The notes beneath the pieces were generated by a model. It was not told where the DNA came from. It searched no databases and worked only from the letters and a program-made list of their open reading frames with translations. Below are positions 4,996 to 35,252 of a stretch of DNA of 42,592 nucleotides, piece after piece. The number at the start of each line of letters is the position of its first letter. The first letter of the stretch is position 1. The stretch comes from Opitutales bacterium. GTDB lineage: Bacteria > Verrucomicrobiota > Verrucomicrobiia > Opitutales > Coraliomargaritaceae. The stretch lies in assembly GCA_049598495.1 (NCBI GenBank), contig JBMYNR010000013.1:1-42592 (forward strand), in the 5' to 3' direction. The position numbers and the translations under genes are program-made.

Positions 4996-5072
<77 letters not shown>

Positions 5073-5260
5073 CTTTAAAGCGTTTCGTTCAACGGGGCGC
5101 TTTTTTGTTTGCTTAGGTTCAGCTGTATTCGATCGGGACTTTTCACCTTTGGTGTTCCGGTTCGCTGTCGCGCCCGGTCTTGTCGCCCGCTTCGCGGGCT
5201 CGGAACAAGTCCCTACAGGTGTGCCACTTTAAAGCCCTAAGCAAATCGTTCGGGGCTTTT
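5073..5260 (+). repeat. tRNA-linked repeat element (Arg copy): terminator, structured core, duplicated tRNA 3' end, second terminator
   Basis: 30-bp direct repeat 5052-5081 = 5206-5235. Core motifs TCCGGTTC, GCCCGGTCTTGTCG (5172-5185) and CTCGGAAC (5199-5206) are shared with the Tyr and Gln loci. Confidence 0.9.
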
Positions 5261-10004: not shown

Positions 10005-10237
10005 GAGCCGATTGCATTGAGTTGGAATTCTGGTGAGAGCCGTTTTGAGAGCCGCGCAAGGCGTCCAACCAAGCGTGCACCGAGGTGCCTAACGGCCTGG
10101 AGAACGCCGCAACCTCTCGAAAAGGCCTCATCCCTGCCCGTTCGGCGAGCTCAGGGCCTTGAATCGATTGAATCGACCGATAGGCGGGACTGGGGAGATT
10201 TTTGCTTCCAGTTATGCTACCTAAATGCAATCGGCTC
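10005..10237. mobile_element. MITE-like element with 14-bp perfect terminal inverted repeats
   Basis: GAGCCGATTGCATT (10005-10018) and AATGCAATCGGCTC (10224-10237); non-coding with internal hairpins. Confidence 0.7.
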
Positions 10238-13767: not shown

Positions 13768-13852
<85 letters not shown>

Positions 13853-14275
13853 GTTTAGGCCGCCCGCGAGGGTGGCCTAAACTCTTTATAATTGCCGGAT
13901 GAGAACGAAGTGGTCCGGTTCATTGCGTGCCCGGTCTTGTCGGCCTAACCCGAATATTGCACCAGTTTGTTGCTGTCGTTCTTTATCTTGTTACGGGATG
14001 GCTACTTGCGAGTTTTCTTCAAAAACTCGTCGTGTCACAAAAGTGACAGCAACAAACTTTGAGTCCAGAAGCGTCCCTGGCTGTGTTCCGAGCGCGTAAC
14101 CCACTTAGTCACGCACTTCAGTGCGCTCCTGCGTGGAACACGGCTCGCGCCTTGCCAAAGCCAATTCTGGATCTCATGCAATAAGCGGGCTAAAGGCCTC
14201 GGAACGACGTAACGGAGTGGAGATGTCGAAGCGCGCAGCGCGAGTAATCCGGCTCCCACCACCATTTTAGGCCGC
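13853..14275 (+). repeat. tRNA-linked repeat element (Tyr copy) with nested MITE
   Basis: Direct repeat 13834-13863 vs 14246-14275 (29/30). Core motifs at 13914-13921, 13929-13942 and 14198-14205. Terminator hairpin TTTAGGCC...GGCCTAAA at 13854-13881. Confidence 0.88.
13949..14189. mobile_element. 241-bp MITE with imperfect TIRs and CTAA target-site duplication
   Basis: CCCGAATATTGCA / TGCAATAAGCGGG (11/13), CTAA at 13945-13948 and 14190-14193, and an internal 14-bp inverted repeat 13964-13977/14045-14058. Confidence 0.8.
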
Positions 14276-34748: not shown

Positions 34749-34822
34749 AGGCTCATGGTGTAATGGTAGCACTACGGTTTTTGGTACCGTCTGTCGGGGT
34801 TCGAATCCCTGTGAGCCTGCCA
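34749..34822 (+). tRNA. tRNA-Gln (TTG)
   Basis: AGGCTCA/TGAGCCT acceptor stem, ACGGT-TTTTGGT-ACCGT anticodon arm, GGTTCGAATCC, CCA; TTGACG/TACTGT promoter-like boxes at 34708-34735. Confidence 0.96.
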
Positions 34823-35026
34823 TTTAAGGCGTCTCGTTCTGCGGGGCGCTTTTTTTGGTTTCTGTTCCGGTGGACGAGGTTGTCGGGATTCTCACCTGCG
34901 GTGTTCCGGTTCCCATTCGCATAGCTCAGGGCCCGGTCTTGTCGCCTTTCGACAAGCTCAAGACTCGGAACGAATCCCTGTGAGCCTGCCATTTAAGGCG
35001 TCTTGTTCTGCGGGGCGCTTTTTTTG
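34823..35026 (+). repeat. tRNA-linked repeat element (Gln copy)
   Basis: 56-bp direct repeat 34802-34857 vs 34971-35026 (1 mismatch) including the terminator. Core motifs at 34931-34944 and 34964-34971. Confidence 0.92.
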
Positions 35027-35252
35027 TTTGCGGGTGGCGAAGGATGGAGGGCAGCGCTGGCGCGTTGCCACGACCATGTATGAGCTTCGTGGTCAATCTA
35101 AGAGTTCTCGTTTGCCTCTAATCGCAGGTGTATCCGGCAATGCGGGAGCCATGCACTCAGTGTGTAGTCACCCCACCAGCTAGGTTGTGAACCTTTTTGT
35201 TTGCCCAAGTCCCTCTCAGCCATTGTTTTCTCCGCTTTCCTTTTTCAGCCAG

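Follow-up and report, generated by a model that had tools for sequence, protein, structure and literature searches.

Short repeats behind tRNA genes of an Opitutales bacterium pair an independently mobile core with an antisense arm that tracks the host tRNA

Introduction

tRNA-linked repeats (TLRs) were described in 1978 and their function is still listed as unknown, at least in the accessible part of the account we cite (PMC8144298). In E. coli, these repeats (RtT, RF00391) resemble the elements described here: they are small units that lie behind a tRNA gene, copy its last 18-20 nt and often stand in tandem. The tyrV repeats comprise a 10-nt antisense arm, a GA bubble, a copy of the 5' half of the T-arm and hairpins with GNA loops, and the lys repeats have shorter antisense arms and also GNA loops. 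The Rfam model of RtT draws a closing stem, so the stem as such is already on record for this family. According to the same part of the account, TLRs located behind 5S rRNA in E. coli are transcribed, processed and bind Hfq and CsrA, and an RNA role therefore exists for some members; that part mentions neither an arm, nor mobility, nor a DNA-level role (PMC8144298).

Base-paired guides and a single active strand characterize the IS200/IS605 elements and the gene-less PATEs, as set out in the accessible sections of two reports (PMC3333891, PMC10055086). Integrative elements aimed at the tRNA T-loop, bounded by attL and attR, are similar to the repeats described here in that their duplication starts within the T-loop and makes the gene whole again. 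In integron attC sites, a single strand folds back and rebuilds a double-stranded site with unpaired bases. In the openly readable main texts covered by our search, neither the core reported below (core A) nor an action of TLRs at the DNA level is described. Here we describe repeats of this kind in a 42,592-nt stretch of DNA from an Opitutales bacterium, the whole of which we call the window.

Results

The window contains four tRNA genes, of which those for Arg, Tyr and Gln are each trailed by a short gene-less element. Each element terminates in a copy of the 3' part of its tRNA and trailer (30 bp for Arg, 30 bp for Tyr and 59 bp for Gln), and all three carry the hallmark of TLR/RtT repeats, in which the final 18-19 nt of the tRNA recur as an identical 3' end. 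By our own reading, about 13 of the 33 called tRNA genes of the whole host genome bear such an element, whole or truncated. Two types occur in this genome: type A, with the core layout GKTCCGGT-hairpin-CCGGTCTTGTCG-hairpin-CTCGGAA, and type B, with the head layout GAT-GA-GAAC...GTTYGA. The three elements of the window are not all alike, the Tyr element being RtT-type and the Arg and Gln elements type A.

The intact tRNA-Arg(ACG) gene (4996-5072; this and the other parts of the elements below lie on the plus strand, cores and the MITE-like elements being given without strand) is followed by a terminator-like hairpin with a T run (5077-5109) and then by the Arg element. The element opens with an antisense arm (5135-5141), the reverse complement of tRNA-Arg positions 57-63, and a small hairpin, P2 (5144-5154; family form CACC-TNC-GGTG, with the loop TTT here), whose 3' side GGT is a copy of tRNA positions 52-54. 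The mobile core A (52 nt, 5154-5205), whose GNA-loop strand is the minus strand, occupies the place of T55, and an exact 30-bp copy of tRNA-Arg 56-76 and trailer follows (5206-5235; source 5052-5081). An outer inverted repeat (5108-5117/5236-5245) is broken without compensation in related strains and is therefore probably due to chance. The Gln element has the same layout behind the intact tRNA-Gln(TTG) gene (34749-34822): an arm complementary to tRNA-Gln 57-63 (34885-34891), a P2 with a TGC loop, that is GCA on the minus strand (34893-34903), a core A of 68 nt (34903-34970) and a 59-bp copy (97%) of tRNA-Gln 56-76 and terminator (34971-35029).

Behind the intact tRNA-Tyr(GTA) gene (13768-13852), the element begins with an RtT-type (type B) head made of an arm antisense to tRNA positions 59-65, GA and a GAAC-GAA-GT hairpin (13894-13911), and continues after core A (13912-14204) with a type B, RtT-like body whose GNA loops lie on the plus strand (14205-14245) and a copy (97%) of tRNA-Tyr 58-76 and trailer (14246-14275). 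This element is a composite, in which core A was inserted later into a type B element at GT[T]CGA and a MITE-like element (13946-14192), TA-flanked and with imperfect terminal inverted repeats, is nested in the second hairpin loop of the core. Contigs of a related strain (runs X8 and X18) join 13906 to 14205 with five letters between, so that strain lacks both core A and the nested MITE. The same TA-flanked MITE recurs in the second hairpin loop of a core A at the end of G000 C16 and reaches very high depth in other organisms. A second MITE-like element of the window (10005-10237), with 24-nt inverted ends of the TTGCA...TGCAA type, also has high depth, with many foreign flanks in sequencing runs.

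Judged from its sequence, the Tyr type B element is probably a homolog of E. coli RtT/TLR. Head and tail motifs are common to the two by eye, the tyrV repeats of E. coli end in nearly the same 20-odd bases, and the Tyr element is the only RF00391 match in the genome, with its tail scoring 25.9 bits (E 0.0067), below the cut-off of 45, in a copy that is split by insertions. The Arg element gave no match to RF00391 at E values up to 10, and the Rfam scan returned tRNA as the sole family at cut-off. The first-pass annotation had listed the Tyr arm together with those of Arg and Gln; the arm exists, but in an RtT-type element that owes the common core to a later insertion. By eye, type B gains one A at GA^R and type A loses one base. 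Type B is probably a TLR relative, and type A is a TLR by layout with another core and a mirrored polarity (GNA strand minus; break at 55, not 58); the Arg and Gln elements have no RtT match, and their core also moves free of tRNAs. Elsewhere, a minimal 26-nt type B core without a tRNA arm lies in a small gene at GA^A (G000 C31, about 1635-1660).

The six 7-mers that the first-pass annotation had paired in the Arg, Gln and Tyr elements are all in place and are exact reverse complements. Its claim that the resulting stem covaries with the T-arm of the host tRNA holds as to the host tRNA, the own tRNA being favoured, and as to the T-stem strand for Tyr only: the Arg and Gln arms face tRNA positions 57-63, which comprise T-loop positions 57-60 and three T-stem bases and are not a T-stem, and only the Tyr arm (59-65) spans the T-stem strand. 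Further copies likewise pair preferentially with their own tRNA. Among 39 copies with an upstream duplication (3 of them, not at tRNA sites, kept in), the arm forms 5.79 of 7 pairs with its own flank and 4.45 of 7 with foreign flanks, a difference reached in 0 of 5000 permutations; the own flank is strictly best for 17 copies, tied for 14 and beaten for 8. A second set was chosen without regard to the arm, on the small hairpin and core start only; 46 of its 54 loci lie behind a same-strand tRNA or tmRNA of 14 kinds, and these 46 copies score 5.39 against 4.16 (0 of 10000 permutations). In a 38-row alignment, both sides of the closing helix have changed in 38 cells, compared with 13 in shuffles (0 of 500), although, as the copy sets overlap and contain kin, the P values overstate. 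The match of the arm to its own tRNA exceeds chance, and the covariation is real. Many arms are nevertheless imperfect, 8 of 46 in the second set pairing at all seven positions, and some retain C opposite A57, so arms lag behind changes of the tRNA. Type A units also stand behind tmRNA 3' ends (L376, L302).

The stem goes together with the insertion unit. Of 101 family genomes, 42 contain the small hairpin with the core start and 1 contains a core-less form of the head, compared with 5 control matches; of the suggestion that the fold is either selected or made by the insertion mechanism, what is borne out is that the stem tracks the host tRNA and belongs to this unit. It had further been proposed that GAAC, which replaces GTTC of the T-loop, pairs with GTTCCG of the core. 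Such pairing is possible, but the GTTCCG/CGGAAC stem has zero covariation in the 38-row alignment and is broken in 23 of 38 rows, and among 175 cores, 95 begin with GGTC or GATC at the left end while their right end shows no change to match. Nor does core A show MITE features, as free sites have no target duplication and end pairing is not kept.

The first-pass annotation had interpreted the closing stem as a tRNA-mimic 3' end. In such an RNA reading, a read-through small RNA with the helix, acceptor strand and CCA would be cut like a tRNA 3' end, or its arm would open the real T-arm and thereby tune tRNA maturation. CCA does end all three window copies and 29 of 50 family copies (those without it mostly lie behind tRNA genes with no encoded CCA), Rfam models RtT as an RNA with such a closing stem, and E. 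coli RrB yields a transcript that is processed close to the repeated end, as stated in the accessible part of the account (PMC8144298). Unconstrained RNA folding also prefers pairing of the arm with the real tRNA for Arg (0.96) and Tyr (0.995), with 0.10 for Gln; the 7-bp arm duplex (about -9 to -11 kcal/mol) is stronger than the bare T-arm hairpin (about -5 to -6), and if the cloverleaf is fixed, the partner of the arm is its own copy (0.88, 0.76). A tRNA-like 3' structure as a substrate for RNase P/Z or CCA addition, with an acceptor helix stacked on a T-stem with T-loop, is nevertheless absent. The Arg and Gln helix covers the T-loop rather than the T-stem, and in 52 copies nothing was found to pair with the duplicated acceptor strand (7.10 against 7.18; 6339 of 10000 permutations). 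The Arg copy of the window has the second highest score in this test, in which the spacer window was shifted in some rows; the partial match of its spacer to the acceptor strand is not general. A terminator-like hairpin precedes the Arg element, copies antisense to tRNA D-loops exist, and the loops and wobbles of type A lie on the wrong, untranscribed strand (both detailed below). In one RNA run, none of the contigs covers the Arg element, which weighs neither for nor against. We therefore regard tRNA mimicry as unlikely, and any RNA role of the arm, invasion of the real T-arm in read-through transcripts included, as improbable though conceivable.

Type A loops read TNC on the tRNA (plus) strand, which is GNA on the minus strand, in 18 of 30, 40 of 93 and 27 of 87 distinct hairpins, and GNRA or cUNCGg loops on the plus strand number zero. 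Terminator hairpins behind tRNAs have the pattern of RNA: 30 of 41 are tetraloops (6 GNRA, 11 UNCG) and none is a TNC triloop. GCGNAGC forms an extra-stable mini-hairpin in DNA, the RNA forms being much less stable (PMC13037366, accessible part). Arm mismatches on the plus strand are A.C rather than G.T by 13 to 4 in the 39-copy set and 17 to 4 in the second set, and would therefore be wobble pairs on the minus strand. In folding against shuffles, the plus strand of the Arg element does no better than chance (z -0.88) and the minus strand does better (z -2.58); the values for Gln are -0.51 and -3.48. Loops and wobbles together show that type A favours the untranscribed strand, as expected of single-stranded DNA. 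Tyr-like type B elements have the opposite loop bias, to the plus strand.

Core A moves on its own. We gathered 175 distinct type A cores from genome G000, 16 relatives and metagenome contigs; they measure 42-70 nt with two to three hairpins, their invariance being in part a product of the search patterns used. The majority are distant from tRNAs and armless, the 115 non-tRNA copies scoring 3.56 against 3.62. Of 92 distinct free sites, 87 have T at -1 and 86 have C at +1. In interrupted genes, substituting one N for the core restores long reading frames, among them those of group II intron RTs, a tyrosine integrase, a Y2 transposase, Y1 transposases and a 23S-IVP gene; the core therefore replaces the middle T of TTC, which in tRNA is T55. 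The core lies either way relative to genes, and its host sites comprise T-loop position 55, tRNA-Ser D-loops in antisense, the loops of GTAG-REPs and other mobile elements' genes. Armless cores also occur in a tRNA-Gly copy (L151) and in an island-end tRNA-Lys fragment (L280), and type A units of 102-155 nt form tandem arrays. At five loci the core lies on the antisense strand of tRNA-Ser D-loops with the 5' end of the tRNA copied, two of them with a 6-7 bp arm, and these copies are beyond explanation by any T-arm mimic.

One RT gene (L212) carries two cores in opposite orientations, for which reason we rejected a programmed intron. Core sites in RT genes include EAD-F, DLKS-F, YADD-F, FD-F and W-K-QW, as well as the non-conserved N-terminus and positions outside the frame; by inspection, a strict preference for conserved RT motifs is accordingly only partly borne out. 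Hairpin-loop targeting by free cores finds no clear support (40% vs 31%). Cores recur at the same codon in diverged genes: two Y1 genes (L138 and L149) differ by 17 synonymous and 5 non-synonymous changes in 44 codons, the RT genes of L212 and L252 share an identical core with 24 of 44 codons different, and core variants track the site more than the genome. This same-codon occupancy, for which the three-base target does not account, suggests homing or a strong site preference of the core.

Several cores have company. Y1 genes with a core A at GM-K-W (L138, L139, L149, L303) have a second, type B-like insert at KLF^QGRY, and share this later insert site despite many synonymous differences. Two group II intron RTs of G018 (L156, L159) have several cores each, and in L159 the DNA between the DLKS-F core and the YADD-F core is missing, as if the cores had recombined. 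In L199, L200 and L202, type B elements have a core A inserted at G[A]A in their antisense arm. Many free cores (L130, L143, L146, L183, L211, L213, L236, L242 and others) lie in 7-nt periodic repeats and have a second-hairpin variant in common.

We searched for a partner enzyme by neighbourhood and by co-occurrence. Neighbours of the core are mixed (140 of 169 flanking frames scanned); cores flank none of the 35 Y1 loci fetched, a sample outside which many further Y1 matches lie, and 1 of 30 GIY-YIG loci. The number of cores correlates alike with Y1 genes, GIY-YIG genes and genome size (rho 0.71, 0.73 and 0.63), and no dedicated partner stands out. Within 1.5 kb of 16 open cores there is no autonomous or long gene-bearing parent, save the MITE nested in the Tyr element, and the flanks of the IS91-type Y2 genes of G000 hold no core A. 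We know of no Y1 or IS91 element with a habit of losing one base of its target. The HDV, hammerhead and twister ribozyme folds were rejected, there being no Rfam match and the variable loop being unfit.

The units could also be shrunken attL/attR sites of integrase-driven islands aimed at the T-loop. The duplication starts at tRNA positions 56-58 and extends into the trailer, like the identity blocks of att sites, and in G000 a 3.8-kb island (C7, 12700-16800) is bounded on both sides by a 170-bp type B unit. Integrase insertion, however, is not known to make an antisense arm or a conserved core; the core is found far from tRNAs, the units measure only 100-170 bp, and beside the scanned tRNA-linked copies there is neither a tyrosine nor a serine integrase. 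We consider this origin very improbable. Translations of the C7 island read as a broken helicase gene and a HipA-type-looking toxin-antitoxin pair.

In a GTDB scan with a pattern that proved too loose, 9 matches in 8 of 119 stretches remain after filtering for a tRNA or an end; true copies make up about 5 of the loci, in records of Opitutae, Opitutales, Puniceicoccaceae and Verrucomicrobiae. A strict type B pattern, too strict for a census, hits 3 of 201 genomes of the phylum. IMG/VR holds 2 loci, and BLAST against phages and plasmids gave partial, chance-level matches only. A third family of hairpin repeats, which begins at the tRNA CCA, stands behind tRNAs in G000 (C7, C8, C10, C20, C23, C35, C50), sometimes in tandem and often with small GIY-YIG genes after them. 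The short AT-rich contig C70 of G000 has tRNA-Met and tRNA-Lys genes unlike the rest of the genome and is possibly foreign.

Discussion

The window repeats are probably mobile elements of single-stranded DNA, whether the arm serves as an address or arose as a by-product. With moderate confidence, we favour the reading in which the type A unit is a non-autonomous, gene-less element in which the arm reconstitutes a double-stranded target with the core inside it. Behind working tRNA genes, the core is accompanied by a fold-back head (the arm against 57-63 and the mini-hairpin holding 52-54) and by a copy of the 3' half of the tRNA, so the upstream tRNA stays whole. Along the GNA strand, the unit consists of the left half of the target, the core, the right bases of the target, a GNA-capped turn and the complement of the target. 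When this strand folds, the arm would fold back and restore a double-stranded T-loop site around the looped-out core, and its duplex with an intact target would contain a tandem G.A mismatch at the site of insertion. Since the arm would rebuild the T-loop target, the covariation may reflect a recombination or address structure and not tRNA mimicry.

Insertion of the 100-170 nt unit at the T-loop would require a recombinase that acts in trans on single strands, most probably a RAYT-like Y1/HUH transposase; the duplication would keep the tRNA gene alive, and repeated insertion or slippage between copies could produce tandem arrays. The Y1 enzymes of IS200/IS605 and REP elements carry out strand-specific, guide-paired single-strand transposition according to the accessible part of one report (PMC3333891), which makes a RAYT-like enzyme the first candidate. 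This reading is weakened by the lack of a partner gene near the cores scanned and of a long gene-bearing form among the open cores, by the loss of one target base, by the imperfection of most arms, by the lack of clear hairpin-loop targeting and by the RNA role of some E. coli TLRs.

Alternatively, given that free cores manage without an arm and that arms decay, fold-back repair may have produced the arm incidentally. The same mobile core would then be at work, but arm and duplication would stem from a fold-back template switch (forward, reverse, forward) at an essential tRNA during insertion or repair, with quasi-palindrome correction keeping the arm roughly matched, and the arm would guide nothing. 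Consistent with this, the 115 non-tRNA cores were inserted armless, arms are often imperfect and lag behind tRNA changes, and the arms of L162, L182 and L224 complement the junction exactly while leaving out the core. A mere by-product fits less well with the identity of the linker and C-GNA-G cap at 14 kinds of tRNA or tmRNA sites, with orthologous-looking Gln loci that retain arm and cap and a matched change at 57 while the spacer has diverged, with a head not found without the core, and with the same design in E. coli. We view this origin of the arm as possible but doubtful.

Of the known systems, TLRs/RtT come closest to the units. The definitions of REP, PATE, MITE and att sites, as given in the accessible parts of their descriptions, each disagree with one or more of the features tested (PMC3733652, PMC3184786, PMC10055086, 10.1101/2024.07.17.603846). 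Like REP/BIME/REPIN elements with their RAYT, the core is gene-less, multicopy hairpin DNA with a preferred strand, intergenic and sometimes in inverted pairs (G000 C3); unlike them, it has a consensus with neither GTAG nor CGTC as a tag at the foot of the hairpin, it uses the loops of GTAG-REPs as insertion sites, and it does not flank the Y1 genes examined. The free core shares with IS200/IS605 and PATEs the absence of target duplication, the hairpin ends and the single active strand, but PATEs insert 3' to a fixed 4-5 nt motif and neither add nor remove bases. At the target of the core, by contrast, nothing beyond T[T]C is conserved and one base disappears, and a parent with the same ends was not found near the open cores searched. 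As in integron attC, one strand of the type A unit would fold back into a double-stranded site, yet core A lacks the RYYYAAC...GTTRRRY order, cassette genes and a linked integron integrase. In contrast to islands between attL and attR, the window elements are tiny, have no integrase and carry an antisense arm.

A wider proposal, which we think rather unlikely, is that TLRs, from E. coli RtT to the repeats of this window, are footprints of an undescribed DNA-guided single-strand homing system. In that system, an enzyme in trans would recognise the structured core of 40-70 nt, and a reprogrammable fold-back arm would address the target strand by pairing with it across tandem G.A mismatches. The proposal takes in the cores at the same codon of diverged reverse transcriptase and transposase genes (YADD-F, GM-K-W).

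If TLRs are footprints of a single-strand mobile element, an old question becomes directly testable, even in E. coli K-12. To search for the enzyme in vitro, one needs exact ends, a rule for the target and a strand, and the free core supplies all three. Should the arm be an address, it would represent a new way to aim insertion by DNA base pairing. If the homing system were real, the core would be a tiny element that parasitizes or inactivates other mobile elements, and it might serve as a programmable tool for inserting single-stranded DNA.
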